Below are positions 3,491-22,010 of a stretch of 24,397 bases of DNA, one piece after another. Source of the stretch: Promethearchaeota archaeon. GTDB taxonomy: Archaea; Asgardarchaeota; Lokiarchaeia; Sigyniarchaeales; SOKP01. Under the pieces are notes generated by a model. The model did no database searches. It saw nothing but the letters and a program-made list of their open reading frames with translations, and had not been told where the DNA came from. The first letter of the stretch is position 1. Every line of letters starts with the position of its first letter. Both the position numbers and the translations under genes were made by a program. The DNA lies in the NCBI GenBank assembly GCA_016930515.1, contig JAFGGO010000009.1:1-24397 (forward strand). The letters run 5' to 3'.

Positions 3491-4300
3491 TTATAATAAT
3501 ATTCTATTTGGATGGGCATAAATATTCATTCTGGCACCCCTTACAAACCCAATCAATGTGATACCATGTGAAAACGCCAAACGAATACCTGATTCTATGG
3601 CGGTCGATACTGAGGCCAAAATCGGAAATCCCGCTCTCACGGCTTTTAAGACGGAATCTCCCGTCAATCGTCCCGTTGATGTTAATACGAATTTAGTAAA
3701 ATTATCCTCCTTGATTAACATTTCCCCTATTACTTTATCTATGGCGTTATGCCTTCCAATATCTTCCTTACAGGCGAGCATGTTTCCTTTAAGGTCGAAC
3801 ACTGCTGCCCCGTGACACCCTCCCGTCTCTCGAAATATTACAGTATTTTGTTGCATTTTTTTAATAATGGTGTATATAAAATCGGGTTTTATCTTGATCT
3901 CGTTTCCTGTCGAAAAGTGAGCATCTCTTTTGTCGAGAACTTCTTTTATGAGGTTTCTCCAGGGGGAAGAAATTCCACAAGTAGTATCGATAACCCTGCT
4001 CACAGGATTGATCTCCAAGGCCTTAGGATTTAGCTCCAATTTATCGTCTAATTCTACCATTATCTTGTTTTCAAGTTCCTCAATGGTAATAGTTTTCAAA
4101 TCCTCTTTTTTTTGTATTAATCCAATGGAATACAAAAAACCAATCGCAAGATCTTTCAAATCATTCGGTAAGCAAATGATATTCGCAAGTGGCTTGGAAT
4201 TCACGATGATATCCATAGGAGATTCCACCAAGACGATGTCTTGCTCCTCGCTAGCCTGATCTTTTTTAATTTTTGTGATTTTTACGAGACGCTTATACAT
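3491..4300 (-). CDS. fdhD: Formate dehydrogenase accessory sulfurtransferase FdhD
   Basis: ExP...P.DL..LA.GFL, TTCG, FRETGGCHGAA, EDIGRHNAIDKVIG, TGRL and GITLIGFVR. Confidence 0.93.
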   Translation of the reverse strand: MYKRLVKITKIKKDQASEEQDIVLVESPMDIIVNSKPLANIICLPNDLKDLAIGFLYSIGLIQKKEDLKTITIEELENKIMVELDDKLELNPKALEINPVSRVIDTTCGISSPWRNLIKEVLDKRDAHFSTGNEIKIKPDFIYTIIKKMQQNTVIFRETGGCHGAAVFDLKGNMLACKEDIGRHNAIDKVIGEMLIKEDNFTKFVLTSTGRLTGDSVLKAVRAGFPILASVSTAIESGIRLAFSHGITLIGFVRGARMNIYAHPNRILL

Positions 4301-4543
4301 GGGAAGAATTACTCGTTAAAAACAAATTTCTTATAACACAAAATAATAGTTCATAAAAAAAGGTTTTTCGGATTATTTGTTTCACATTAATTCGTAAAAT
4401 TAAACATATCTTTTCTTTTCGATTGATTTAGAGGTTTTGAGGTTGAATATTGGCGCGATTGTTTGAAAATTTTATATTGCACCTTTTTTTTTGACATTCT
4501 TATTTAAAAAACAAATTATCGTTATGATTTCTCCCTATAGCAT

Positions 4544-4610
4544 ATCTTCCACCAAAGCCCATGACGAACTTGATGCCATATTCTTTGATGTAATTTTGGG
4601 TGGTTAAGAT
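4544..4610 (+). other. GC-richer imperfect hairpin in an AT-rich spacer (candidate structured RNA element)
   Basis: ATCTT-CCACC-AAAG pairs with TTTT(G)GGTGG-(TT)-AAGAT and encloses ATGAC...TGATG. Confidence 0.3.
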
Positions 4611-4825
4611 GTTTCTGTCTTTGCTATATTTTATGAAACATTCCTTCTAATCATAATAAACTATATTTTTAAATTAAATAAAAGAGGACGAATTTAATTT
4701 TAGACAACAAAAATTGGAAATTCAAAAATAATAATAGGATTAATCACTTTGAAATTTGAAAGTGTATTTCTTGTTTGTATTAATTAATTAAAATTAAAAA
4801 AAGAAAATAATAAGCTAATTTGTAT

Positions 4826-5677
4826 TTAAGCGGCAATATAAATCCTGCCATTTGAGCTATTGGAAGGCTTGCCAGTTTGCTTGTCCATTTTGGAATGGTT
4901 CTTTTCGACGGAATGGTCTCCACTATATTCAATGAACTTACCTTTGATTTTATCGCCGTTCATAAGTTCGATTTCGTTGACTTCTCCAATTTTCTTGTAC
5001 GAAGGAAGCATCTTTAAGACCTTACCCTTTACGATGATAGTACCACGTACTTGATCTGCTCCCGTGCAACGAATGCAATCACCCTCTACGATGATGGTAC
5101 CTCCGTGTCCGTGAACCCCCAAGAAATTGCCCGCTCCACCGCAAATCAAGGTTGGAAATCTCTTTGCAGGTTTGGAACCGTTTACCCAAGACATTGATTC
5201 GTGTCCTACTTTACCTTTTACCTTGATAACTCCATTTTTCATGCCCTTCCAATGACCCCTGTATGCGGCTCCAACATAATTGCCTGCGTCTCCCGTGATC
5301 TCTAGTTCTCCCCCTTCCATCATGGCTCCTGCCCAATCGTCTGCGTTTCCGTTGACTAATATTTTTCCACCAGACATTTGACTTCCCAAGTGCATTCCTA
5401 CATTTCCGTTCACGACGATTTCTCCACCCATCATTTTTTCGCCAATTCGCTTGACATTTGAGAGGTCGCCATCAATGATTATTCTCGTTCCATTCAAGTC
5501 TCCTCCTTTACCTGTGACGCTAAAGTAATCTCCAATAGTCGCTTTTTGGTTACCGTAATAAACGGTTAACTTTTTTATTTCATCGGTAGATTTACCTGCA
5601 AAATTATCAGGCGTGATGGTATCGGCTTCGAGTGGAAACTCGAGCTTTTTAGTAAGTTTTAATTTAATATCTGTCAT
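4826..5677 (-). CDS. fwdC: Formylmethanofuran dehydrogenase subunit C
   Basis: PLEADTITPD, repeated G..M.GG.I.V.G beta-helix (GXGXG) motifs, GAAYRG.W.GM..G and LPSY. Confidence 0.95.
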   Translation of the reverse strand: MTDIKLKLTKKLEFPLEADTITPDNFAGKSTDEIKKLTVYYGNQKATIGDYFSVTGKGGDLNGTRIIIDGDLSNVKRIGEKMMGGEIVVNGNVGMHLGSQMSGGKILVNGNADDWAGAMMEGGELEITGDAGNYVGAAYRGHWKGMKNGVIKVKGKVGHESMSWVNGSKPAKRFPTLICGGAGNFLGVHGHGGTIIVEGDCIRCTGADQVRGTIIVKGKVLKMLPSYKKIGEVNEIELMNGDKIKGKFIEYSGDHSVEKNHSKMDKQTGKPSNSSNGRIYIAA

Positions 5678-5678
5678 G

Positions 5679-7001
5679 TTACTCCCCTTTTTTCTCCTTG
5701 ACTTTTTTTATGATTCTTTTCAAGATCTCCACATCAGTTAAACATTCGCCCGGAGCATCCTTAACCTTTCGTAATCTTAGAGGAACATGGTCCATTCGAT
5801 ATGCGGTACCTTCACATTCGATCCCCGCAATTGCAGGAGGCAAGATCACGTCCGCAAAAGCAGATGTTGGCGTTTCGTGAGGTTCAACCGAAATTAAAGG
5901 ATGTTTAAATAGGTTTCGCACGGACGCTGCTGGAAAATTACTTGCAGGGTCTGATGCAACGATTAAAGATGCATCAATCTCGTTCCGAACGAGAACATCG
6001 CACGACGAAAACTCTCCAGGATTGTATCTAGGGTATCCTTTTGAAAAATCTATTGAAAAAGGATATCCTGTAGACCATGAAAAGACAGTATTTGCACCCG
6101 TTACGTTGTAATGTCCTCGCATTGCTGTGATCAAGAATTTGGTATGGTCGTTGAGTTCTCGAGTAAGACAGATGGCTGAATCGATATTTCGATGGTGTGC
6201 TTCGGATTGTGTAAGCCCCATGCCGAAAAATATGACGCCAAAAGTGCAGGATTTTAATTTTTCTGCTATTTCGAGGATCTGGGTTGTTGGTACACCCCCA
6301 ACTTCCTCGACATCAAGTTCGGTACCTCGTACAACTGCTCTTATGGCGTTTAATAGCTCGTAATCTTCATCGGGTCTTACTTGGAGGTGAACGTCAGCTA
6401 TTTGAGCAGTATGCGTGTTTCTTGGATCTATGACAATAACATAACGATCCCTCCTCCCGTCTTTCTTGAAATAACCACGAATGAATTCGCTATATCTTCC
6501 AAGATGTCTTGGATGAGCGTGTACGGGATTACATCCCCAGAAAACGACCAAATCAGCTCGATTCTTGTATTCTCCTAAGGTGGAAGAGGGTACTCCAACA
6601 TCCTGAACTGCTAAAAGCGTTGGACCGTGACAGACGGAAGCTGTGTTATCTAAAATTCCCCCGAGAATTTCTGCGAGTTCTACGCCTTTTCCTTGGGCAT
6701 CAGCTTCAGTGCTTGAAAATCCATATAATAGGGGTCTCTTTGCATTGACTAAAATATCTGCTGCTTTATCGATTGCCTCGTCCCAAGACACTTCCTTGTG
6801 AGAATCGCCCTCTTTTATTAAGGGTTTTTCGTACCTATGTGAACTTGGATTTGACGAAAAGAATTTTTTCACGCCTATTTGACAACCATTTCTTACCTCA
6901 ATAACTTTATTATCTTGTACATCAACTTCCAAATCATCGCATAAAGTTCCACAAAACGGACATACCACATCAGTACAAGTTATACAATTTTTTGATGCCA
7001 T
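5679..7001 (-). CDS. fwdB: Formylmethanofuran dehydrogenase subunit B (Mo/W-bis-pterin catalytic subunit, Cys-ligated)
   Basis: CPFCGTLCDD...C [4Fe-4S] motif, ASVCHGP metal ligand, WGCNP.HAHPRH, RGHYNV.G and GTAYRMD.VP. Confidence 0.96.
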   Translation of the reverse strand: MASKNCITCTDVVCPFCGTLCDDLEVDVQDNKVIEVRNGCQIGVKKFFSSNPSSHRYEKPLIKEGDSHKEVSWDEAIDKAADILVNAKRPLLYGFSSTEADAQGKGVELAEILGGILDNTASVCHGPTLLAVQDVGVPSSTLGEYKNRADLVVFWGCNPVHAHPRHLGRYSEFIRGYFKKDGRRDRYVIVIDPRNTHTAQIADVHLQVRPDEDYELLNAIRAVVRGTELDVEEVGGVPTTQILEIAEKLKSCTFGVIFFGMGLTQSEAHHRNIDSAICLTRELNDHTKFLITAMRGHYNVTGANTVFSWSTGYPFSIDFSKGYPRYNPGEFSSCDVLVRNEIDASLIVASDPASNFPAASVRNLFKHPLISVEPHETPTSAFADVILPPAIAGIECEGTAYRMDHVPLRLRKVKDAPGECLTDVEILKRIIKKVKEKKGE

Positions 7002-7003
7002 TT

Positions 7004-7399
7004 TTAAGCCTCCATTAATAATCTCATTAAATCTAAAGCGTTCAATACTTTTCCATTCTGAATTACTTCTACTCTTGCTTTCATGCCTTTGAAGGTTGGT
7101 GTACCGCAGGATAACGAATCTGGATTGACAACTTGATTTGCCCAGGGGCCCATTGGAATGAATATCGTACCTGGGTGAGGGCCTTCATCAGATACAACCG
7201 AATAAACCACAACTTCACCAAAATCAGTAATTACCTTTACGGGAGTACCCGGAATGCAATCAAGTTTTTTAAAATCGTCTTTATCAAACATACAAATTCC
7301 GCATGCTCTTACATTTTCCTTGGATGTTTTACTACCTTCGAGAGCCACTCCTTGTTGGATAGTTCTTCCGGTAAGTAGCGTAAGATTATCTATACTCAT
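7004..7399 (-). CDS. fwdD: Formylmethanofuran dehydrogenase subunit D
   Basis: LLTGRTIQQG, IFIPMGPWAN and GTPTFKG (molybdopterin dinucleotide-binding domain). Confidence 0.95.
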   Translation of the reverse strand: MSIDNLTLLTGRTIQQGVALEGSKTSKENVRACGICMFDKDDFKKLDCIPGTPVKVITDFGEVVVYSVVSDEGPHPGTIFIPMGPWANQVVNPDSLSCGTPTFKGMKARVEVIQNGKVLNALDLMRLLMEA

Positions 7400-7408
7400 T
7401 TTTTTAAA

Positions 7409-8119
7409 TCACTCCCTCTTCAATCCTCTCATGGTTTTTAATCTTACAACGAGATCGGGCCAGAAAGGTTCGTTAAACTTTCCCGAACTTTTTACTTCTT
7501 TAATATTTAGTTTGACGGCACCAGTAGGACACGCGTTATCGCATGTTCCGCAAAAAATACACTTCTCTTCGTCTACAACAACGTTGGATGTTTTTTCCCA
7601 TCCTTTTTTAGATTTAGGTGGAATAGATATTGCGGAACTTGGACAGACATCGTAGCAGGTGTCACATCCTCCAGCACACTCATCGTCGACGATCTTTATA
7701 TTACCACTGGTATATTGCTTTACGACTCTTTCAATACCGTCTTTATTTTTAATCTTTTTCGCTTCGAACTCAAGTTTGGGTAACACACCTTGCTTTACGA
7801 GCGGAATATCTTCGAGCTTAAGGACTTCGTTATTTATTTTTAAGCTTAGCGCAGAAAACGGACACATTACAACACACGTACCGCAAAACACGCATTTATT
7901 TGGGTCGTATACTTCCGTGACCAATCCATCATTCGTCTTTATTCGAATAGAAGCGCCAACGGGGCCTCTATTTACTGCCTCTTTAGGACAGACGCGACTG
8001 CAGGTGCCGCATCCCACGCACTTGGTTTTATCGTGAATTAATTCTTGCGATTGCGTGAGAAACTGGATCTTCACGGATTCTTGGTTGTTTTTTATCGTTC
8101 TATTTATTTTAGGAAACAT
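7409..8119 (-). CDS. fwdF: FwdF/FmdF-like polyferredoxin, short form with 4 [4Fe-4S] motifs (copy 2)
   Basis: CVGCGTCSRVCP, CVFCGTCVVMCP, CAGGCDTCYDVCP and CIFCGTCDNACP. MFPKI start, located within the fwd operon. Confidence 0.75.
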   Translation of the reverse strand: MFPKINRTIKNNQESVKIQFLTQSQELIHDKTKCVGCGTCSRVCPKEAVNRGPVGASIRIKTNDGLVTEVYDPNKCVFCGTCVVMCPFSALSLKINNEVLKLEDIPLVKQGVLPKLEFEAKKIKNKDGIERVVKQYTSGNIKIVDDECAGGCDTCYDVCPSSAISIPPKSKKGWEKTSNVVVDEEKCIFCGTCDNACPTGAVKLNIKEVKSSGKFNEPFWPDLVVRLKTMRGLKRE

Positions 8120-8160
8120 TTCTCATAACCTCTTGGTTTTCTAATAAAAAATTATGTATA

Positions 8161-8874
8161 TTATTGTCTCTCGTTTAATTTAAGTCTCGATTCGATGCGA
8201 TCCCAAAAAGGACTATTATATTCTCCCGAATATTTCACTTCGGAGATGGTCAAGGACAACGCTCCAGTTGGACAAGCAGAATGACACGCAGCACACGCAA
8301 CGCACTTGTCATTATTAATCGTTAAAACGATTTCCGAGTCCCAATCGATTTCCTTTTGCTCGCACGACCACGTAATAGCGCCAAAATGACAAGAATCTGC
8401 ACAATTTTTACATCCACCAGCACACAAACTAGTATCAATTGTTACATATCCTTCCATATATTTCTTTACATCTTTGCCCTCGGTAGTTTTAACCATAGTA
8501 TATTCTATTTTTGGAAGAGCATTTTGCTTTATAAGCGAAAGGTCTTCCATTTTTACGGGTTCACCGTTAATAACTAAAGTTAATGCATTGGCCGGGCATA
8601 AATAAGTGCACACGCCACAGTACGAGCATTTTTCGGGATCGTGAACATTAGGTATGAGATGATGTCTCACTTTCTTGATGATCTGTTTTGAGGAAAATCG
8701 AATTGGTTTGTCCAATTGTTTTTTAGTAATTGCTTCTTTAGGACAAGCTCTAGCGCATAAATTACATCCAATACAAAGTTCCTTGTCAAGCACGAGCTGT
8801 AATTTTTCCTTAAGAAATTCGACATTTACCGTTTCCAAATTATTATTTTTCACTCTTGATATTTTAGGGAACAT
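8161..8874 (-). CDS. fwdF: FwdF/FmdF-like polyferredoxin, short form with 4 [4Fe-4S] motifs (copy 1)
   Basis: CIGCNLCARACP, CSYCGVCTYLCP, CAGGCKNCADSCH and CVACAACHSACP. Full-length paralogue of 7409..8119. Confidence 0.75.
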   Translation of the reverse strand: MFPKISRVKNNNLETVNVEFLKEKLQLVLDKELCIGCNLCARACPKEAITKKQLDKPIRFSSKQIIKKVRHHLIPNVHDPEKCSYCGVCTYLCPANALTLVINGEPVKMEDLSLIKQNALPKIEYTMVKTTEGKDVKKYMEGYVTIDTSLCAGGCKNCADSCHFGAITWSCEQKEIDWDSEIVLTINNDKCVACAACHSACPTGALSLTISEVKYSGEYNSPFWDRIESRLKLNERQ

Positions 8875-8891
8875 TTCTTTTTGCCTCCATG

Positions 8892-9149
8892 TTATTTAAC
8901 TGATGCAATTTCCATTGATATAGCGCTTTGGGGACACTCCTTTATGCAAACTCCACATCCATCGCAATTTCTCTCTCTATCTGGAATGAAAATGGAATAA
9001 GCGGTTCCATTTTTAACTAAAATGACCGCATTTTCATGCGTGAGCTTGCCACTCGTTTTTAATTCGTCAAAATTAATCGGGCAACTAACAACGCACACAT
9101 TGCATCCAGTGCATAAAGTTTTATTTATTCTAAGGTTAAATACTTGCAT
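8892..9149 (-). CDS. fwdG: 2x[4Fe-4S] ferredoxin, formylmethanofuran dehydrogenase subunit G
   Basis: CTGCNVCVVSCPIN...VKNG...CDGCGVCIKECP; 85 aa, located in the fwd operon. Confidence 0.85.
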   Translation of the reverse strand: MQVFNLRINKTLCTGCNVCVVSCPINFDELKTSGKLTHENAVILVKNGTAYSIFIPDRERNCDGCGVCIKECPQSAISMEIASVK

Positions 9150-9163
9150 TTTAGTCGTCCCTC

Positions 9164-9580
9164 TTAGCTGTTTATCTTATTTGGCCCTAATTGCTTTATC
9201 GTATGCACGAATTCTTCTGCTACTTCCGTTAATTCTGCTCCTTCTGAGGCTGAAATCTGCGTGTAATATACTCTTTTAGGATTTATGCCAAATTGTTCTA
9301 GATATCGATCTAGCAAGGCCATCTTTGCGAAAGTCTTGTAATTTCCTTCGACATAATGACAATCTCCTGCGTGGCAATGAGACACGAGAACTCCGTCAGC
9401 TCCGTTCATTAAAGCGTCCAATACGTGTTGTGGTTCCATCCTACCTCCACACATAACGCGCATTATACGCAAGTTAGCAGGCCTCTGCATTCTTGACGTG
9501 CCCGCCTGGTCTGCACCAGCATAGGTACACCAATTGCAAAAGATCGCTAAAATTTTTGGGTTAAATTCGCTTTCAGTCAT
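9164..9580 (-). CDS. mvhD: [2Fe-2S] MvhD/VhuD subunit (hydrogenase/Fdh-to-HdrA adaptor)
   Basis: FCNWCTYAGAD.AG.SR, RVMC.GR, GADGVL, CH.GDCHY..GN, ISASEG and LGPN. Confidence 0.95.
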   Translation of the reverse strand: MTESEFNPKILAIFCNWCTYAGADQAGTSRMQRPANLRIMRVMCGGRMEPQHVLDALMNGADGVLVSHCHAGDCHYVEGNYKTFAKMALLDRYLEQFGINPKRVYYTQISASEGAELTEVAEEFVHTIKQLGPNKINS

Positions 9581-10148: not shown

Positions 10149-10475
10149 TCATTTTAATTTTACCCTGGTTCCATTATCTCTCAGTTTTTCAATAATCTCT
10201 AAATTTTGGTTAATAATTCGTCGCTTGGTGAATGGATTATCGAACAAGTCGAGTTGTTTTAACGATTCAATATTTACAAGCATTTTTGGAAATTCTTTTA
10301 ATTGATTACCTCTTAATGCAAGTATCTTAAGCGACTTAAGTTCGCATATAGATTCGGGTAGAGCTGTTATTTGATTATGTCTTAAATCTAAAGTCTTGAG
10401 CGATTTTAAATCTCCTATTGATTCAGGAAGAGTCTCAAGTTGATTATAAAATAAGTTGTTTTTGAATACACGCAC
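10149..10475 (-). CDS. Short leucine-rich-repeat protein (about 3 LRRs plus C-cap); may be a 5'-truncated remnant
   Basis: 23-aa repeats NQLETLPESIGDLKSLKTLDLRH / NQITALPESICELKSLKILALRG / NQLKEFPKMLVNIESLKQLDLFD NP. GTG start, begins mid-repeat. Confidence 0.8.
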   Translation of the reverse strand: MRVFKNNLFYNQLETLPESIGDLKSLKTLDLRHNQITALPESICELKSLKILALRGNQLKEFPKMLVNIESLKQLDLFDNPFTKRRIINQNLEIIEKLRDNGTRVKLK

Positions 10476-11288: not shown

Positions 11289-12944
11289 ATGAGGAAGAAA
11301 ATAATAGCGACGGTTTTATCAATTCTTATTATAATAAGTTTTACTGGCGTGGTATTTTTTTATGTATATCTTCAAAATTCGGGTAATGATTGGCACGAAC
11401 AGTACAAGGAAGATCCCGAATTTCTTCCAAATCCCGGAGGCATTGATTTTGGAATGAATTTGGACGGAATCAACGATTGGGGTCGGGAGTGGCCCTTTAA
11501 GAACCTCATGAAGTTATGCCGTCCGTTCTTGACTGGAAACGACCACTGGGTCAGTGGTGGAAATAATACATGGAATACAGGTCTTATTGATCAAATTCCG
11601 TGCGACGAGGATGGATATCCATTGCAATTACCCCTTAATTTCGGAATGGAAGCGCTTCAAATCGTTCACACGGCTTTCGCGACGCTATATAATTTACCGC
11701 TTGGTAATTACACCTTCCTGTACGACGGGGAAGGAGAATTCGAGTTTACGGGAAATTGGGAAGTTCTCGCTCATTCCCAGGGTAGATATGTCTTAAACAT
11801 GACAACCAACGAGGATTTCCACGGGATTCAAATCCAAAATTCTACCTTAGGAAACCACGCGCGCAATTTCAGGTTAATCAAATCGGAATACGAGGACAAC
11901 TATCTTGACAATCCTTTCAATCCAGCATGGCTCGATAAGTTATCTAATTTTGATACCATTCGATTTATGGATTGGGGATGTACTAATTTTCACGACAATT
12001 TAACTTTCTGGGAAGATCGATCGAAAGTGTCTGAATATTGTTATTCGCACGAAAGGGGCGTTCCATATGAGATAATGATTGAACTTTGTAATCTTTTAAA
12101 CAAAAACGCGTGGGTATGCGTGCCACACGAGGCTTCGGACGATTATATCTCACAAATGGCACAATTATTTCGCGATACTCTCGATCCAGAACTAACGCTT
12201 TATGTGGAATATTCAAACGAGATATGGAACTGGATGTTTCCTGCGACTCACTATTGTTATAATGAAAGTAGTGAAGCTAATCTATCCGTTCCGTGGCCGG
12301 AACGAATTGCACCTTTCATTCAAAACGCTCTTGACATATTTTCAACGACTTTTTCTGGACAAATGTATCGCTTACAACGCGTCGTTGGCGTCCAGGCGGG
12401 ATGGTTTGATGTAGGAAATCGCACGATCTCGAACATAGATCCTGATAGCTATGACATCATCTCTCCAACGGCGTATTTTGGATTCGACGAGGATGCGATT
12501 GCTTTTTTAGAACAGAAAGGCGCTAAAACCACCGTGGAAGACGTTTTCAACTTGGCCCTCGACGGAATAGACAAAAACATAATTCCCTGGATTTCGATGT
12601 ATCTTAATCGCACCATTGAATTAGGAAAGCAAATGGCGTTTTACGAGGCGGGTCAACACCTCACTCCCTATCCGTTTGGATCGGAACAACCCTACGGTCA
12701 AGCGTTAGTAGACATTCAATCTCACGATTGCATGTACTACCTGTATAATTACTTGTTCAATCAAATTAGACGCCTTCGAAACGAATCGGGCTACCAACAA
12801 AACTTTCTCATGGAAATGTATAGCTTCGCAACGAGTCCAAGCGCGCGATATGGAACATGGGGCGTACTTCCCGATATATTTTTGGAACCACCTTACTTAC
12901 CCGATGCTCCTAAATACCAAGCTATTTTGGATAATATGGAATGA
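11289..12944 (+). CDS. Membrane-anchored/secreted putative glycoside hydrolase (TIM-barrel, clan GH-A-like; 'cellulose-binding protein'-type family)
   Basis: N-terminal basic plus hydrophobic anchor; GMNL, D.DGYP, IRFMDW, W.CVPH, YVEYSNEIWN (putative acid/base), FYEAGQH (putative nucleophile), YGTWG and PKYQA. Confidence 0.65.
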   Translation: MRKKIIATVLSILIIISFTGVVFFYVYLQNSGNDWHEQYKEDPEFLPNPGGIDFGMNLDGINDWGREWPFKNLMKLCRPFLTGNDHWVSGGNNTWNTGLIDQIPCDEDGYPLQLPLNFGMEALQIVHTAFATLYNLPLGNYTFLYDGEGEFEFTGNWEVLAHSQGRYVLNMTTNEDFHGIQIQNSTLGNHARNFRLIKSEYEDNYLDNPFNPAWLDKLSNFDTIRFMDWGCTNFHDNLTFWEDRSKVSEYCYSHERGVPYEIMIELCNLLNKNAWVCVPHEASDDYISQMAQLFRDTLDPELTLYVEYSNEIWNWMFPATHYCYNESSEANLSVPWPERIAPFIQNALDIFSTTFSGQMYRLQRVVGVQAGWFDVGNRTISNIDPDSYDIISPTAYFGFDEDAIAFLEQKGAKTTVEDVFNLALDGIDKNIIPWISMYLNRTIELGKQMAFYEAGQHLTPYPFGSEQPYGQALVDIQSHDCMYYLYNYLFNQIRRLRNESGYQQNFLMEMYSFATSPSARYGTWGVLPDIFLEPPYLPDAPKYQAILDNME

Positions 12945-13071: not shown

Positions 13072-14223
13072 ATGCAGGTCACACGAAGCGAGGATTGCTT
13101 GATTTTTTACGCACTCACGCCAGGATCTATGAAAGGTAGCCAAGTTCGAGGAGAATTTCAACATTTCTTGAATTTAAAACAACAGAACGACCCTTCCGAT
13201 CGTTTTAATATCATTGCTTTTCAAGAGGATGGACCTACTTATCTCGATCATTTTACATTAGATCAAGAGATAGTGCTCTCAGCCCTGAAGGCCTTTCACA
13301 AGACAGTTACTCGAGCTAACATTGCGGGCGGAATATTTGTCGCCATTACTTTTATCATTGAAGTGTTTAAAAAAATCTCTGAAAAAATATTTAGACTAGT
13401 GATCCTTTTAGACGATAAATCTTACAAGATTCCGGAGCATTACCTTCCCGTATTAGAAGATCTTATCGATAAAGTCAAGGATATGCCATTCTTTATCGAT
13501 GTGGTCTATTTGAATGCTATTGACGCAGAAGAATGTAGAAAATTGCAGAGACTTTCAGGTCGGACTAAAGGCGATTATTACGAGATTTCGACCATGAGAG
13601 ATTTATCCGCTGCCTTGACGATCCTTTCGGAGAAAAAGAGAATTAAAGTCGCTAATTTTTACAACAAGCAAAAACCAGTTATAATTCAAGAAAATCAACC
13701 GTTTTACGTGAATCTTGCGGATGAACCAATAGTAGTAAACGAGTTGACTTCCTGTGCAATTTGCTTCCAAAAGGATGATACGGGACTTGTGAAGTGTCCT
13801 TCTTGCGATACAGTCGCTCATATGACATGCTTGGCGCAATGGGCGAAAATCTCTAATATTGGTATATCTCATGTCTTTCGATGTCATATTTGCTACAACA
13901 TTCTCAAACTTGACGAACAGTTCGTTCTCGATGTACACGCTGGCAAGATCCCTACTCGAGAACAAATGCTTAAACTACAAAAGAAAGACCTCGTACGCTA
14001 TATGCAGGAATTGGAAGAAAAAGATAAGCCACGGATTGTGCAGGTCATTGATCCCCTTGCAATAGAGCAGGACGAAAGCGAAGATGTAATTGTAGTAGAA
14101 GACGAGATCGTTGAACCAATAAGAAACAAGCCGAAAATAAAAATTGTTATTTGTCCCAATTGTAGTAGATTTACCACGAGCATCAAACAGGAATGCCCAA
14201 TGTGTGGTTTTAAATTATTTTAA
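13072..14223 (+). CDS. vWA domain + C4HC3 RING-like finger + acidic linker + C-terminal C4 zinc ribbon
   Basis: N-terminal about 190 aa with a vWA pattern and no MIDAS DxSxS. CAIC-x10-CPSC-x4-H-x2-C-x3-W...CHIC at about 13753-13893. CPNC-x10-CPMCG at the C-terminus. Confidence 0.8.
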   Translation: MQVTRSEDCLIFYALTPGSMKGSQVRGEFQHFLNLKQQNDPSDRFNIIAFQEDGPTYLDHFTLDQEIVLSALKAFHKTVTRANIAGGIFVAITFIIEVFKKISEKIFRLVILLDDKSYKIPEHYLPVLEDLIDKVKDMPFFIDVVYLNAIDAEECRKLQRLSGRTKGDYYEISTMRDLSAALTILSEKKRIKVANFYNKQKPVIIQENQPFYVNLADEPIVVNELTSCAICFQKDDTGLVKCPSCDTVAHMTCLAQWAKISNIGISHVFRCHICYNILKLDEQFVLDVHAGKIPTREQMLKLQKKDLVRYMQELEEKDKPRIVQVIDPLAIEQDESEDVIVVEDEIVEPIRNKPKIKIVICPNCSRFTTSIKQECPMCGFKLF

Positions 14224-16576: not shown

Positions 16577-18580
16577 TTATTCTTTCAATGCCCAGTTGAT
16601 GATCTGGTTCAATTGGAAGTTTGCAAAATGGTTCTGGATCATTGCCCCACTAGGACAGGCGCTCACGCATGTTCCACATCCTTTACAGAGGACTGGGTTG
16701 ACCACGGCAACCTTTTTGAACTCGTCAAAATCGATCGCACCAAACGGACACAATGATTGGCAACTCATGCAACCCGAGCATTGGTGCTCGAGCACGACCG
16801 AGTAATACGGTTCGATCTCTACTTCCCCTTTAGCCATTAAAGTGGCCGCACTAGAAGCAGCGCCTTTAGCTTGAGCTACGGTATCAGGAATGTCCTTTGG
16901 TCCTTGCGCCACGCCCGCTACAAAAATTCCGTTTGTTAATGTGTCTACTGGTCTTAGTTTAGGATGAGCTTCCATGAAAAATCCGTCCGCTGATCGTTGT
17001 ACGCTCAATAAGGAAGACACCTTGTCAGCGTCCGATTTTGCTTCCAATCCCGTGGAAAGAACCAGCATATCAACTTTCATTTCTATCGGTGTTTGTAAAA
17101 GCGTGTCTTCTGCTCGAATTATGATGTTGTGATCTTCGTCTTCAGATACTTCGGCAATCCTGCCTCGAATGTAAGTAATGCCGTATTCTCGAGCGGCTGA
17201 CTCGTAAAACTCTTCGTATCCCTTTCCAAAGGCTCGAATATCCATGTAAAATATGTAAATATCGGCTTCGGGGTGTTTTTCTTTGTATTGCCTCGCTTGT
17301 TTCGTTGCGTACATGCAACACACTCTCGAACAATACTGATTGCATCCCTCCCTGAAGTTCCTGCTTCCAACGCATTGGAGGAAGGCAACGCTATGAGGTG
17401 CTTTTAAATCAGATGGTCGTGCGGGTTTTCCTTCTAATGGGCCGGTAGAACTCAAGAGACGCTCCATTTGAAGGCCATTAATTACGTTTGGATATTTTCC
17501 AAAACCATATTGTTTTAATTTAGTTGCATCATACAAATCCCAACCCGTTGCAATAATGATAGTTCCAACTTTTACCTTCACATATTCGGGTTTATCGTCG
17601 TAATTTATTGCTCCTGGTTCGCACACTTCGGGTCTGGCGCAGATACCGCATTGAATACATTTTTCCATGTCAATAGTGTATTGACCAGGGACAGCTTGAG
17701 GGAAAGGAATGTAAACTGCCTTTCTCGTGCCAAGACCCAAGTCAAATTCGTTTCCACATGTTACCGGGCAAGCTTCAGCGCAGGCACCGCAACCCGTACA
17801 TTTGACCTGATCAATATAGTGCGGTTTATGCATTATAGTAACATCAAAATTTCCTACATATCCACTTACATCAACAACCTCTGAATAAGAATGAATTTTG
17901 ATGTTTTCGTTTCGGGCGACATCGACCATTCTTGGCGTTAAAATGCAAGCAGAACAATCCATGGTAGGAAAGGTCTTGTCTAATTGCGCCATGTGCCCTC
18001 CAATGGTAGCTGTTTTTTCTACCAGGTGTACTTGATATCCTTCAGTTCCTAAGTCCAAGGCGGCGTTCATTCCCGCGATTCCCGCTCCAATAATAAGGCA
18101 AGATGGTTCAACGCTAACTTTCTGCACTTCCAATGGTTTGAGCTTTCTCGCTTTTGCAATGGCCATCTTAATGTGATCCTTCGCAATATCATAGGCTCCT
18201 TTTTGATCTCTCATGTTAACCCATGTTGCGTGCTCTCGGATATTAGCTTGTTCAAAGAGAAATTGGTTGAGACCTGCCTCTTTACATACTAATCTAAATG
18301 TAGGTTCGTGCATTCGAGGTGAGCATGCCGCTACAACCACTCTATTAATGAGTCCTTCTTCAATGTCCTTTTTTATGATTTCCTGACCATTATCAGAACA
18401 GAAGAATTTATACTCTCTGGCAACCTCCACATTTGGTAAAGTTTTTGCGTATTCAACCAAATCAGGTACCGAAACAACTCCACCAATATTAATACCACAG
18501 TGGCATACATATACGCCTATTTTAGGTGTTTCTTTACCTGTTACTTTAATTTCATTACTTGTTTCAGTCATTTTTCGCAT
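16577..18580 (-). CDS. hdrA: Heterodisulfide reductase subunit A (FAD, electron-bifurcating)
   Basis: GVYVCHCG.NI, AACSPRMHE, NIRE, GAGIAG, DKTFPTMDCSACIL, inserted ferredoxin, CVGSR...YCSRVCC, HPKLRPV and C-terminal 2x[4Fe-4S]. SD spacing suggests the real start is the ATG at 18571. Confidence 0.97.
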   Translation of the reverse strand: MRKMTETSNEIKVTGKETPKIGVYVCHCGINIGGVVSVPDLVEYAKTLPNVEVAREYKFFCSDNGQEIIKKDIEEGLINRVVVAACSPRMHEPTFRLVCKEAGLNQFLFEQANIREHATWVNMRDQKGAYDIAKDHIKMAIAKARKLKPLEVQKVSVEPSCLIIGAGIAGMNAALDLGTEGYQVHLVEKTATIGGHMAQLDKTFPTMDCSACILTPRMVDVARNENIKIHSYSEVVDVSGYVGNFDVTIMHKPHYIDQVKCTGCGACAEACPVTCGNEFDLGLGTRKAVYIPFPQAVPGQYTIDMEKCIQCGICARPEVCEPGAINYDDKPEYVKVKVGTIIIATGWDLYDATKLKQYGFGKYPNVINGLQMERLLSSTGPLEGKPARPSDLKAPHSVAFLQCVGSRNFREGCNQYCSRVCCMYATKQARQYKEKHPEADIYIFYMDIRAFGKGYEEFYESAAREYGITYIRGRIAEVSEDEDHNIIIRAEDTLLQTPIEMKVDMLVLSTGLEAKSDADKVSSLLSVQRSADGFFMEAHPKLRPVDTLTNGIFVAGVAQGPKDIPDTVAQAKGAASSAATLMAKGEVEIEPYYSVVLEHQCSGCMSCQSLCPFGAIDFDEFKKVAVVNPVLCKGCGTCVSACPSGAMIQNHFANFQLNQIINWALKE

Positions 18581-18583
18581 CTC

Positions 18584-19531
18584 CTATATTAATTGCTCCT
18601 TCACTTTTGCTAGAAATGGATCTAATGAAATGAATGGAGAAACACCGCTTAATTTATGGTTCTTCATTAATCCTAAACGGCTCGGATCGATCCCCATAGA
18701 TACGCCTAAGAGTTGTGTCAAATATATTACAGGAATGTTGAAAGGTTCTCCGATTTCGTCTGCAAACGTGCCATTTACTTCAACTTGGCCCAGATCAAGT
18801 TGTAAATGACAGAACGGACAACAATCTACGATGATATCAGCACCAGCGTTTCTCATGTTAACTAATTTCTCGCGAGTAAAGTCTAAAGATACCTCTTTTA
18901 TTCCGCTTCTTACGGCACCTCCCGCCCCGCAACACATAAACTTGTCCTTGTAATCGATGCTTTTAGCTCCGGTTAATTCTACGAGCTCGTCTAAAAATCG
19001 GGGATCTTCCGATTCGCCTCCCCATGGTCTCATATCGCTTGGCTTGAGTACGTGACACCCGTAGTGAACGGCTACTTTCAAATCCTTAAATTTGTGCTTG
19101 ATATGATCTCGAATGTAATCCAAACCCATGTCTTGATATAAGATTTGAGTAATGTGTTTAGGTTCCCTGTTCCCTTTAAATTCCATTCCGATTTTAGCAA
19201 GATGTGAGTTTACTTCTTTTTTAAGTGCTGGGTCGTGCTTGAGTTCTGTCCAAGAATCCCTGAGAGAACCGTAACATCCATTGCATCCGGTTAGTATATC
19301 AACTCCCTTTTCCTCAGCTATGCAATTATTTCGAGCGGCTACCGCCATCCATGTTGGAATGTGGAAAGCTCTAAACACGCCTGGTGCCGGACAACAAGAT
19401 GCACCTTCAAGTTCCACGAGTTCTGCACCTAACTCTTCCATGACTGCTCTAATAGATGCTTCTATCATTGGATATCTATTTGGAATGACGCACCCTAGAA
19501 AAAATCCATATTTAAAATCAGTCGTCGTCAT
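18584..19531 (-). CDS. hdrB: Heterodisulfide reductase subunit B
   Basis: Two CCG domains: FLGC..P, SCCPAPG, CNGCYGSL, HYGCH.LKP, MCCGAGG and CPFCHLQLD. Confidence 0.96.
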   Translation of the reverse strand: MTTTDFKYGFFLGCVIPNRYPMIEASIRAVMEELGAELVELEGASCCPAPGVFRAFHIPTWMAVAARNNCIAEEKGVDILTGCNGCYGSLRDSWTELKHDPALKKEVNSHLAKIGMEFKGNREPKHITQILYQDMGLDYIRDHIKHKFKDLKVAVHYGCHVLKPSDMRPWGGESEDPRFLDELVELTGAKSIDYKDKFMCCGAGGAVRSGIKEVSLDFTREKLVNMRNAGADIIVDCCPFCHLQLDLGQVEVNGTFADEIGEPFNIPVIYLTQLLGVSMGIDPSRLGLMKNHKLSGVSPFISLDPFLAKVKEQLI

Positions 19532-20133
19532 TATTTCTTTTCCTCCTCTTTTTGAGATTCAGCCTTTCTTTTTGCTTTAATTTCTTTCACATTGTCCATC
19601 AGTTTTCTAAATCCCGTGGACTTCATGAGTGTTTGGAGATCTTCTACAGCTTTAGGGAATGAGTGAACAGTGGGTGGAAGGGCTGGTAATCCGTACGATT
19701 CTCTCAAATCCCTCCATTGTTTATTATTATCTCCATGAGCCGGAACGCCGTGTCCGCACGCATAAAACATCTCGCTCAGTCCTGCGTGTGAGTCCATGAT
19801 ATGTGCCTCTTCTACCGCTATATTTCTTAATTTTATTATCATATCAGTAACCGGAATGTTACGAGGACATCTTTCGTAGCACGTATAACAAGTAGAGCAA
19901 AACCATAACGAAACATCTGACAGAACGCTTTCGTCTCCCATCAGAGCTCTTCGAATGACTGATCGAGTTCGATACGCCGTTCGACGACCGGAAGGGCAAC
20001 TTCCGGAACAGGTGCCGCAATTAATGCACGATCGTATTTCTTCCAAGCCAGCATCCACGAATTTATCGGAGATTCGAGAATTCGTATTTTTGAACACTTT
20101 ACGCTTGATATATTTTTCTTTATTACTGCTCAT
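19531..20133 (-). CDS. hdrC: Heterodisulfide reductase subunit C
   Basis: CINCGTCSGSCPSGRRT, WFCSTCYTCYERCPR, GH.VP and LP.LPPT.H. Its TAA overlaps the hdrB ATG (TAATG). Confidence 0.96.
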   Translation of the reverse strand: MSSNKEKYIKRKVFKNTNSRISDKFVDAGLEEIRSCINCGTCSGSCPSGRRTAYRTRSVIRRALMGDESVLSDVSLWFCSTCYTCYERCPRNIPVTDMIIKLRNIAVEEAHIMDSHAGLSEMFYACGHGVPAHGDNNKQWRDLRESYGLPALPPTVHSFPKAVEDLQTLMKSTGFRKLMDNVKEIKAKRKAESQKEEEKK

Positions 20134-20588: not shown

Positions 20589-21116
20589 ATGGAGTATAAA
20601 ACAACTGTCAATGACACCAAGCTGGAATTATACCTTAGTGAATTATACGATGTTGCTTGCGACGCAATAGTGATACCTTCTAATAACCGCTTGTTACCAA
20701 GCGGTACTTTAAGATGTAGCGTCTTAAAAAAGGCGGGTGCAAAAGTCCAGGTCGAATGCAATCGAATTGTCAACCAAGTTTCTTCAGTTCCGTTAGGGGA
20801 TGCTGTTGTCACTTCGGGAGGAGAACTCTCTGCCCAGCACATCATTCACGCCAATAATTCAAGTCGGGATGTAAAATCACTGATGAAAGCGACATGGAGC
20901 GCCTTAAAATTGGCTGATAAGAAAGGATATGAAAAAGTGGTTTTTTGCGCTCTTTCAAAAGACGTACAAGGATTCAATATGGAAGCTTGCGCTAAGGTGA
21001 TGATTCTAACTATTAAAAAATACATTTCAGAAATAAACGAAAATATTAAAAAGATTTGTGTTTTCCTCGAAAATCAAGAGGATTATGAAAATTTTGAAAA
21101 AATTCTTAAAGAATAA
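20589..21116 (+). CDS. Macro domain protein (degenerate ADP-ribose-binding motifs)
   Basis: CDAIV.PSN..L, KKAG..VQ.EC, G.AVVTSGGEL.A.HIIHA, AL.LA..KG and GF..E.CAKVM. Confidence 0.88.
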   Translation: MEYKTTVNDTKLELYLSELYDVACDAIVIPSNNRLLPSGTLRCSVLKKAGAKVQVECNRIVNQVSSVPLGDAVVTSGGELSAQHIIHANNSSRDVKSLMKATWSALKLADKKGYEKVVFCALSKDVQGFNMEACAKVMILTIKKYISEINENIKKICVFLENQEDYENFEKILKE

Positions 21117-21293
21117 GCTTTAATCCATTATTCATTTGTGTTTTCTCTTTTTCTCTAAAACTAAAATTAGTTCAAATATTTTTCAAGAAAAAAAATATTG
21201 ATCATTATTTCTACAATAATTCCACTTTTTTACCAGATGGTTTTTTATTATTCATTAAGTTTTTTTAACCAAACTAGTACTAATATTTTAGAC

Positions 21294-22010
21294 ATGTCCG
21301 ATACAAATGATCACATAGAACTTGCCTACGAGGCAAACGACAAGGGAATTGCTCGCTTTAACGAAGGAAAGTACTCTGAAGCGATTGAGTATTACAAAAA
21401 AGCTATCGAGCTAAATCCCCGCTTTTTTGGTGCGTGGTATAACTTAGGAAACTCATACGCTCGAACGAAAGAGTACGAAGAAGCGATAAAATGCTATCTA
21501 AAGGCGCTTGAACTCAAACCAGACCTTTTTCAAGTGTGGAACAATTTTGCCCTTGCAAAAAAGGAACTTGGCAAGTATGACGAAGCAAGATCCTCCTTTC
21601 AAAAAGCCCTTGAAATTAACCCCAATTTTTTTCCAGCTTGGTATAACTTGGCAAATGTGGTTTTTCTCGAAGAAAATTATGTTGAAGCGATCGAATTTTA
21701 TCAAAAAACGCTTGATATAAATCCAGACTACATTAAAGCTTGGAATAATATGGGAAACGCCTACTTTAATAGGGAAGAATTTAATGAAGCCATAAGATGT
21801 TATCGGAAAGCACTCGAACTCGATCCCGTAAACGATTTAGTCTGGTATAATCTTGCTTGTGTTGAATCGAGAGCAAACAAGGCAACTGATTCCTTAGAAC
21901 ACTTGAAAAAGGCCATTGAACTCGAAGACTCTTGGAAGGATAAAGCGCGAATTGATGCTGAATTCGACAACATAAAACATTTAAAAGAATTCAAGGAGCT
22001 CGTGGAATAA
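21294..22010 (+). CDS. Tetratricopeptide repeat protein (5-6 TPRs plus C-terminal capping helices)
   Basis: Repeated 34-aa W.NLG..Y.....Y.EAI.CY.KALEL.P units and terminal YNLAC...A..D.EF. ATG at 21294 preferred over the track's TTG at 21198. Confidence 0.93.
   Translation: MSDTNDHIELAYEANDKGIARFNEGKYSEAIEYYKKAIELNPRFFGAWYNLGNSYARTKEYEEAIKCYLKALELKPDLFQVWNNFALAKKELGKYDEARSSFQKALEINPNFFPAWYNLANVVFLEENYVEAIEFYQKTLDINPDYIKAWNNMGNAYFNREEFNEAIRCYRKALELDPVNDLVWYNLACVESRANKATDSLEHLKKAIELEDSWKDKARIDAEFDNIKHLKEFKELVE

Follow-up and report, generated by a model that had tools for sequence, protein, structure and literature searches.

We analyzed a stretch of 24,397 nucleotides (the window; positions 1 to 24,397 of contig JAFGGO010000009.1, assembly GCA_016930515.1) from a Promethearchaeota archaeon of the class Lokiarchaeia, and focus on one of its genes, P0001. 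The gene (13072..14223, + strand) is an open reading frame (ORF) that starts with ATG and encodes a 383 amino acid protein with a von Willebrand factor A (vWA) domain, a RING-fold finger, and a zinc ribbon. The best explanation of our results is that P0001 is a cytosolic, stand-alone member of a vWA-RING superfamily restricted to the Lokiarchaeia. Its single most likely role, to which we give a probability of about 45%, is that of a RING-type adaptor resembling a ubiquitin ligase (E3). We infer E2 (ubiquitin-conjugating enzyme) recruitment, ligase activity, ligand binding that does not depend on metal, and a role for the ribbon. The vWA domain may bind a partner protein or substrate with no need for a metal ion, using strongly conserved loops on its former metal-binding face. 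The C4HC3 cross-brace finger may recruit one of the genome's E2 enzymes charged with a ubiquitin-like protein (E2~Ubl) through a surface formed by I230 and W257. The tethered C4 ribbon may be a second protein-binding or autoinhibitory module, possibly docking on a vWA domain like the ArnA ribbon on ArnB.

Asgard archaea are the closest known relatives of eukaryotes, and their ubiquitin cassettes often lack an obvious E3 to select substrates. The core, strongly conserved fusion of vWA and RING folds in P0001 makes it a concrete candidate, either for an E3 of this kind or for a scaffold that predates eukaryotes. The wider result is perhaps weightier: a three-branched vWA-RING superfamily within one Asgard class, with a basal-looking branch that matches Rpn10 and TFIIH p44. 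What is new in P0001 itself is a vWA-RING protein of one Asgard class that lacks the metal ion-dependent adhesion site (MIDAS), carries a C4HC3 finger and a tethered ribbon, and has no curated family model. Our literature search for Asgard or Lokiarchaea proteins with vWA and RING domains, the coverage of which did not include the 2011 survey of prokaryotic RINGs (Burroughs et al.), found no description of the family and no archaeal relatives of the vWA subunits of TFIIH, the proteasome lid, or BRISC.

The protein is well conserved. Among 5.8 billion proteins, a word-indexed search recovered about 275 relatives, and conservation across them excludes a chance ORF. Among the matches listed, the relatives are mostly full length (370-390 amino acids) and 50-89% identical to P0001. 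Every named one is from an Asgard metagenome-assembled genome with a Promethearchaeota, Lokiarchaeia, or Lokiarchaeota label, and some have submitter labels of Thor-, Hel-, or Hodarchaeota. When 1.84 billion cluster representatives were searched exhaustively with HMMER, only 165 clusters matched at E ≤ 0.001, so the family is narrow, while real and conserved. The mean column identity is 59% in an alignment of 28 close homologues, the N-termini of which are collinear with the start methionine of P0001 (M-x-x-T-+-S-E-D), confirming the start codon. Searches of Pfam, NCBIfam, and the PDB with the single sequence gave only matches below threshold.

An AlphaFold2 (AF2) model built on the 28-homologue alignment has a mean predicted local distance difference test score (pLDDT) of 77. 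It contains, in order, the vWA domain, a helix, a small beta-rich zinc module (220-280), two to three helices, a stretch with pLDDT of 30-36, and a terminal beta-hairpin module. The initial annotation, made from the sequence alone, had proposed the arrangement of vWA, finger, and ribbon, and both alignment and model agree with it.

The vWA domain occupies residues 1-192 (13072..13647, + strand; alignment and AF2 model). Residues 7-186 form the alternating beta/alpha pattern of a vWA domain, with six strands and six helices (pLDDT about 85-90), as expected for a fold of about 180-200 amino acids in which helices flank a six-strand Rossmann-like sheet. The domain has no MIDAS; the position of D-x-S-x-S is occupied by A-L-T-P-G. 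Its N-terminus had been described as vWA-like and MIDAS-less, and is so. The MIDAS aspartate is missing in all 12 sampled members of the P0001 clade, and D-x-S-R-S-M and S-D-G are retained in more distant relatives (the sister clade). Invariant loops follow strand 1 (T16-P17...K21), precede helix 3 (A82-N83-I-A-G-G87), and follow strand 4 (D114...I120-P121). Judged from topology, these invariant residues probably cluster on the former MIDAS face.

By structure, the nearest matches of the P0001 vWA domain are subunits of TFIIH. Foldseek against the PDB is led by p44/Ssl1 and p34/Tfb4 chains (E at most 5e-11); their alignments exceed 300 columns and extend across the zinc modules. Next come BABAM1 (4e-8), Rpn10 (5e-7), and generic vWA domains such as ITIH1 (1e-6). 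A second comparison of the Foldseek matches gave structural Z scores of 19-20 for p44 (root-mean-square deviation (rmsd) 2.5-2.8 Å over 176-186 residues), 15.7-17.5 for Rpn10, 17.2 for archaeal ArnB, and about 16 for p34 as well as for ITIH1 and a bacterial vWA domain. The resemblance to the p44/Ssl1 vWA domain noted in the initial annotation thus extends to the fold. Within so uniform a fold, the p44 lead of 2-3 Z units in the model comparison is suggestive, not decisive, and prokaryotic VWA_2-type domains (4rck, BatB 3ibs, and ArnB) score in the range of p44. Embedding look-alikes of residues 1-195 from a protein language model do not discriminate, with generic bacterial vWA and eukaryotic Ssl1 clusters all at 0.89-0.90. 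In the ESM Atlas, the cluster nearest in shape is that of the P0001 family itself, and the next is a Promethearchaeota cluster in which 92% of members have Pfam Ssl1. Further down, bacterial vWA clusters are mixed with three eukaryotic p44 clusters and one for BABAM1.

Direct sequence comparison of the clade gives fewer leads. Pfam places VWA_2 below threshold for P0001 alone (15.2 bits); at E ≤ 1, 26 of 39 clade members have VWA_2, 7 have VWA, and 4 have Tfb4 (best E 4e-6). The first PDB sequence match of the clade vWA profile is BABAM1 (E 0.0028, 20.5 bits) and the next is Tfb4 (0.05). These two are the only recognizable vWA domains among its PDB matches, which contain none of integrin, collagen, or Rpn10 type. 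The alignment with BABAM1 covers both of the segments from which a likeness to MERIT40/BABAM1 had been claimed, the second at 1.0 bit only. That claim stands as far as the two segments and the first rank go, but the match is borderline and at the edge of noise because DsbC, an unrelated protein with no vWA domain, scores alike. BABAM1 is not the nearest kin, as p44, Rpn10, and p34 fit better structurally. We also considered BABAM1 as the closest fold and rejected it: it lies outside the best 50 by Z in the second comparison (all at least 15.6), which leaves kinship as such untouched.

Distant HMMER matches place P0001 in a larger superfamily. An IQ-TREE phylogeny of 61 sequences, computed on the vWA domain plus finger, contains three well-supported clades. 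Clade A proteins are about 400 amino acids long and have a canonical MIDAS (D-x-S-R-S-M...S-D-G) and two fingers. Clade C proteins (440-490 amino acids) retain only the MIDAS aspartate and are often encoded by tandem pairs of genes. Clade B, which contains P0001, is sister to clade C (support 100/98). The P0001 family profile aligns with clade A across the vWA domain, linker helix, and finger (hhalign probability 100%, E 4.9e-38, 275 columns).

Clade A has the closest sequence ties to eukaryotic proteins. Its profile matches human and yeast Rpn10 in the PDB at E 4e-16 to 1e-11, with the common motif E-x-T...D-x-S-x-x-M...D-F-x-P-x-R-L, and p44 at 2e-11. Weaker matches are ArnB (1.5e-9), BABAM1 (4e-7), and integrins and anthrax-toxin receptors (1e-6 and weaker), and prokaryotic proteins fall in the same range (4rck 2e-12, BatB (3ibs) 8e-9). 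A profile of all three clades matches Rpn10 (2e-11), p44 (2e-7), BABAM1 (4e-7), and Tfb4 (8e-6), and its finger matches NSE1 (3e-5). Clade A passes the Pfam Ssl1 cut-off (27.5-49.7 bits) in 67 of 68, 6 of 7, and 1 of 1 genomes of three families in one class, and its VWA_2 scores are higher still (52-72 bits). No other genome of the phylum sample (about 220) and none of 14 control genomes encodes a protein that passes the Ssl1 cut-off.

We conclude that the P0001 vWA domain is a derived offshoot, without the metal site, of a VWA_2-type vWA domain whose nearest solved relatives are Rpn10 and p44. The expectation that it falls nearest to the eukaryotic intracellular set is therefore borne out, with p44 as the best fold match and with Rpn10 and p44 significant through the sister family. 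The suggestion that this vWA domain could be ancestral to those of BABAM1, Rpn10, or p44 is not: the P0001 clade is derived, lacks the MIDAS, and is limited to one class, and is therefore a poor candidate for the ancestor of eukaryotic scaffolds. We regard the view of the clade as BABAM1-like and ancestral as weakly supported. MIDAS-bearing clade A is a better candidate than P0001 for a link to eukaryotic vWA scaffolds.

A bolder idea, which we consider improbable, is that the intracellular vWA scaffolds of eukaryotes have this superfamily as their archaeal sister group. The p44-p34 pair, and perhaps Rpn10 and BABAM1, would then derive from duplicated Asgard vWA-RING genes, and paralogues with and without the MIDAS would already have formed hetero-oligomers through contacts between vWA domain and finger. 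The superfamily offers a testable way into the question of how the vWA subunits of TFIIH, the proteasome lid, and BRISC arose. If the P0001 vWA domain nests among ordinary prokaryotic VWA_2 domains, the family would be a lineage-specific signaling adaptor.

The C4HC3 finger spans residues 223-281 (13738..13914, + strand; alignment and isolated-domain model) with the pattern C228-x2-C231-x10-C242-x2-C245-x4-H250-x2-C253-x17-C271-x2-C274. None of the eight ligands varies among the 28 close homologues. In the 61 distant sequences, with identities down to 16-25%, seven of the eight are invariant, and the C253 position is cysteine in 55 and histidine in 6. I230 (two residues after the first ligand) and W257 (H-x2-C-x3-W, four residues after the sixth) are also invariant in the close set, in agreement with the tryptophan pointed out by the initial annotation, and both positions are hydrophobic or aromatic in almost all distant sequences. 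We take them to correspond to I383 and W408 of c-Cbl, classical E2-contact positions of RING E3s.

Folded alone on 45 sequences, the finger reaches a pLDDT of 95.6. The best Foldseek matches of this isolated-domain model are RNF12 with Ube2d2~Ub, Deltex, RNF165/Ark2C, TRIM2, SLX1, and NSE1 (E 0.025-0.15; none at 0.001 or better), and the model also resembles AO7 and ZNRF1 among RING E3 domains solved with E2~Ub. Of the 50 best structure matches, almost all are RING or U-box domains or RING-type (RBR) ligases, with 48-71 residues aligned to RING and U-box domains at rmsd 1.6-3.4 Å. The predicted structure has the cross-brace arrangement, and a PHD fold or another without the cross-brace, which would have spoken against a ligase, is not what either structure search returned. 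The models lead us to lean toward RING rather than PHD.

The genome encodes ubiquitin machinery with which such a finger could work, as had been expected for an Asgard archaeon: a ubiquitin-like protein, E1, E2, and JAB are all present. A ubiquitin-type operon (C26, L022:290-4808, - strand) encodes a ubiquitin-like protein (120 amino acids), an E1/ThiF protein (415), an E2 (175) with HPN and the catalytic cysteine, a JAB/MPN protein (268), and a membrane protein (379). This last protein is multi-pass and has a C-terminal finger, C-x2-C-F...V-x-C-P-x-C-x3-A-H...W, that is laid out like the finger of P0001 and apparently lacks the sixth ligand. It is a candidate for the operon's own E3. A finger of the P0001 type thus occurs inside a ubiquitin operon. 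On C187 (L023:3977-5468, + strand), a second ThiF-type E1 gene (289 amino acids) is immediately followed by a divergent E2-like gene (181 amino acids, UQ_con 41.9 bits). Three E2 genes in the genome score over the Pfam cut-off. One complex prediction (operon E2, finger, and two zinc ions, run without controls) scored 0.00 and gives no verdict, neither for nor against binding.

An E3-like role is favored by the fold match of the finger to RING E3s, the invariant ligands with I230 and W257, the E2s of the genome, the homology of the sister family to Rpn10 and p44, and the standing of the P0001 family as a core gene (68 of 68 genomes of its family). Several points weigh against it. Many active RINGs carry a basic "linchpin" residue after the last ligand; here that position is F/Y, and the residue after the seventh ligand is histidine, not proline. 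All Pfam RING models score under their cut-offs for P0001 (zf-RING_16 17.8 bits against 27.4, Prok-RING_1 17.8 against 29.1, zf-RING_2 15.6 against 27.3). No ubiquitin, proteasome, or repair genes are near the P0001 gene in the window or in the three related contigs. Ubiquitin systems exist in Asgard lineages without the family, and P0001 is therefore not a required E3. The closest structural relatives of the vWA domain (p44, p34, and BABAM1) are non-catalytic scaffolds. The best PDB sequence matches of the finger profile are PHD fingers, at E 1e-5 to 1e-4 (1wev 9.5e-6, DPF2, MTF2, and KMT2D), followed by the RING of Arkadia (1e-4), Doa10, FANCL, NSE1, and SLX1.

These PHD matches would be explained if P0001 were a PHD-type reader that binds a peptide tail (for example, of an archaeal histone) or binds nucleic acid through a lysine-rich tract and the ribbon, with a role in transcription or chromatin. 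F269, an aromatic residue two positions ahead of the seventh ligand, fits the PHD consensus along with the C4HC3 spacing, and a basic tract lies ahead of the ribbon in most homologues. Pfam identifies PHD in the fingers of 16 of the 61 relatives, beside Prok-RING_1 in 21, C1_1 in 15, and zf-RING_2 in 10, all weak; for P0001 itself, the PHD model reaches 15.2 bits, below its cut-off of 24. However, the C4HC3 pattern is shared by RING ligases and RING-like domains among our matches (FANCL, NSE1, SLX1, and Doa10). Both structure searches return RING, U-box, and RING-type ligases, and PHF7, the sole named PHD finger among the listed structure matches (Foldseek rank 42, VIA-align rank 31), was itself solved with the E2 UBE2D2. 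The equivalent ribbon of ArnA binds protein, with no hint of DNA binding (PMC12852372). We consider a PHD-type reader unlikely.

The ranking of p44, p34, and BABAM1 among the structural matches raises the main alternative, somewhat less probable than the E3-like role, that P0001 is a non-catalytic assembly scaffold like these proteins. The vWA domain and zinc modules would be protein-protein glue, and the finger would bind the vWA domain of P0001, of a paralogue, or of the MIDAS-bearing sister, as the p44 RING binds the p34 vWA domain. The missing linchpin residue is consistent with this, as are the subthreshold Pfam Tfb4 matches (E 0.0024 for P0001, on top of the best clade member above) and the frequency of paralogues (2-7 matches per genome), which are often tandem, as hetero-oligomers would predict. 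The invariance of I230 and W257, residues of the E2-contact type, argues against a pure scaffold, and the TFIIH-specific partner Tfb2/p52 has no match in the source genome, which is 94% complete. That genome has one XPD-type DEAD_2 helicase, as do many archaea.

P0001 is 12-15% identical to p44/Ssl1 (GTF2H2), and Pfam Ssl1 (PF04056, cut-off 27 bits) has no match in P0001 at E ≤ 10 or in 39 clade members at E ≤ 1. In p44, the vWA domain is followed by a C4 finger and then a C4C4 RING (C1_4, PF07975), whereas P0001 has its C4HC3 finger before the C4 module and no C1_4 match, giving the order vWA-RING-ribbon instead of vWA-C4 finger-RING. The other TFIIH subunit, p34/Tfb4, lacks a RING, and its direct scores with P0001 are all under the curated cut-off. 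Rpn10/PSMD4 has, like P0001, an intracellular VWA_2-type domain and is the top PDB match of clade A, although the P0001 clade has lost the N-terminal motif and does not match Rpn10 directly; with the superfamily profile Rpn10 ranks second-best. A ubiquitin-interacting motif (UIM) follows the vWA domain in Rpn10, whereas P0001 has RING, helices, and ribbon in its C-terminal half. BABAM1/MERIT40 shares with P0001 an intracellular vWA domain without a MIDAS and has neither RING nor ribbon; its Foldseek rmsd is about 6 Å and it ranks below p44 and p34. The models of FANCL, NSE1, SLX1, Doa10, and Prok-RING_1 (PF14446) lack the F-R-C-x2-C-x2-L-L-K-L tail of the P0001 family and the helix that precedes it.

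The design of an N-terminal vWA domain and a C-terminal RING in one chain, present in P0001, is a proven E3 ligase design in plant RGLG (PMC12647413). In plant RGLG and WAV3 ligases, the vWA domain binds protein and the RING recruits E2 (PMC12647413; PMC11047095), the same two-domain logic that we propose for P0001. Orthology with RGLG is unlikely. The RGLG vWA domain is reported to bind Ca2+ (cited in PMC12647413), unlike that of P0001, which has no metal site, and RGLG and WAV3 ligases have no C-terminal ribbon. In Sulfolobus, the zinc finger of ArnA (C21, C24, C35, and C38) binds the vWA protein ArnB (PMC12852372). Its cysteine spacing, C-x2-C-x10-C-x2-C, is identical to that of the P0001 ribbon; ArnA (zinc ribbon plus FHA) is separate from ArnB, whereas in P0001 the ribbon is tethered to the vWA domain. 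ArnB also differs in having beta-sandwich and helical domains, no RING, and regulation by phosphorylation.

The ribbon itself (residues 356-383; 14137..14220, + strand; alignment) contains C361-x2-C364-x10-C375-x2-C378. The four cysteines, as well as P362 and P376, are invariant in close homologues, confirming the CxxC-x10-CxxC ribbon of the initial annotation, and relatives have weak Pfam Zn_ribbon or DZR matches here. An NZF reading of the ribbon was rejected, because the W and T-F/N residues of the Npl4-type NZF are missing. The C-terminal half of P0001 has no match to a UIM family in Pfam, and this reading was also set aside.

Three segments connect the domains on the + strand. The linker between vWA domain and finger (residues 193-222; 13648..13737; alignment and model) contains a conserved helix, N-Q-P-F-Y-x-N-L-A-D, that packs on the finger and corresponds to residues 4-13 of the finger model (pLDDT >90); N208, F211, and P219 are invariant in close homologues. 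After the finger, a conserved helical segment (residues 282-328; 13915..14055; alignment and AF2 model) has invariant Y310 and E315 and near-invariant D327 and P328, with helices at 282-289 and 305-317 modeled at mixed confidence. The variable linker that follows (residues 329-355; 14056..14136) has a pLDDT of 30-36, unconserved sequence, and variable length. It is acidic and hydrophobic in P0001 and amphipathic with a terminal Lys/Arg-rich tract in most homologues. The acidic linker of the initial annotation is present, at about 329-350, but its sequence is not conserved and its model has low confidence. The stretch D-V-I-V-V-E-D-E-I-V-E is limited to P0001 and its nearest homologue in the 28-homologue alignment, and we rejected its reading as a SUMO-interacting motif (SIM).

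We searched 301 genomes sampled across the phylum with the P0001 family profile. It matches in 68 of 68 genomes of the source family, 7 of 7 of a second family in the same order, and the one genome of another family of the class. One further family has weak matches in 12 of 28 genomes (E about 1e-6), as does a single genome of another; the remaining families of the sample have none. Clade C, intermediate in that it keeps the aspartate, loses the serine, and has extra cysteine pairs in the first finger loop, often consists of two adjacent paralogues on the same strand (for example, G195:C36:182394-185204, G132:C30:54550-57042, and G113:C27:20244-22698), an arrangement that would suit a heterodimer. 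There are also long forms of about 1,100 amino acids (P0130, P0131, P0132, P0139, P0144, and P0148) with an N-terminal vWA-RING-ribbon unit and about 700 further residues that have no clear Pfam family. An example is the gene at G183:C74:67370-68683, and one genome has such a gene 3 kb from its P0001 orthologue.

The source genome encodes two further relatives of P0001. One, on C111, is a ribbon-less protein of 348 amino acids that is 46% identical to P0001. Its gene lies in a co-oriented trio (L016:8427-11529, + strand) between genes for a 224 amino acid small GTPase with a TFIIE-alpha-like winged helix-turn-helix tail and a 400 amino acid Ras-family GTPase. A convergent phosphoenolpyruvate carboxykinase (PEPCK) gene follows, and the order GTPase-vWA-RING-PEPCK recurs on another contig (L019). 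The other (C167:7522-8718, + strand; L017) is a 398 amino acid clade A protein that passes Pfam Ssl1, with a MIDAS-bearing vWA domain (D-T-S-R-S-M...P-N-R-L) and two C4HC3 fingers; its gene is divergent from a Gtr1/RagA-like GTPase gene.

The adjacency of both paralogues to GTPase genes, with the upstream GTPase retained in another genome, could indicate an adaptor in small-GTPase signaling, with or without ubiquitin, in which the vWA domain or finger would bind a Ras-, Arf-, or Rag-type GTPase. We find this quite improbable. Neither P0001 and its orthologues nor P0127, another ribbon-less relative, has a GTPase neighbor, and small GTPases are abundant in Asgard genomes, so that some adjacency is expected by chance.

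The gene neighborhood was uninformative as a clue to function, with conserved metabolic neighbors on the other strand or separated. The P0001 gene is apparently monocistronic. In three related genomes its orthologues are still beside a divergent Fwd-like operon and near UDP-glucose dehydrogenase; the immediate same-strand neighbors vary, with a tandem duplication in one. The window is otherwise metabolic and includes Fwd-like molybdopterin and ferredoxin genes, FdhD, MvhD, HdrABC-like genes, and UDP-glucose dehydrogenase. The next gene upstream of P0001, also on the + strand (11289-12944), encodes a 551 amino acid protein with an N-terminal membrane anchor and no Pfam match at E ≤ 0.001. It is not an operon partner, because an inserted NosD/PKD gene separates its 550 amino acid counterpart on the contig of the nearest relative. 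A formylmethanofuran-dehydrogenase-like redox cluster (3491-9580, - strand) encodes FdhD, a GXGXG-motif protein, split molybdopterin oxidoreductase subunits, two poly-ferredoxins, and MvhD, and is syntenic with the P0001 gene in other genomes. Between the two lies a short ORF for a 108 amino acid leucine-rich-repeat protein (10149-10475, - strand). Downstream are a set of HdrA-like, HdrB (CCG), and HdrC-like genes (16577-20133, - strand), a gene for a 175 amino acid macro-domain protein (20589-21116, + strand) with its position kept in the contig of the nearest relative, and a gene for a 270 amino acid TPR protein (21198-22010, + strand).

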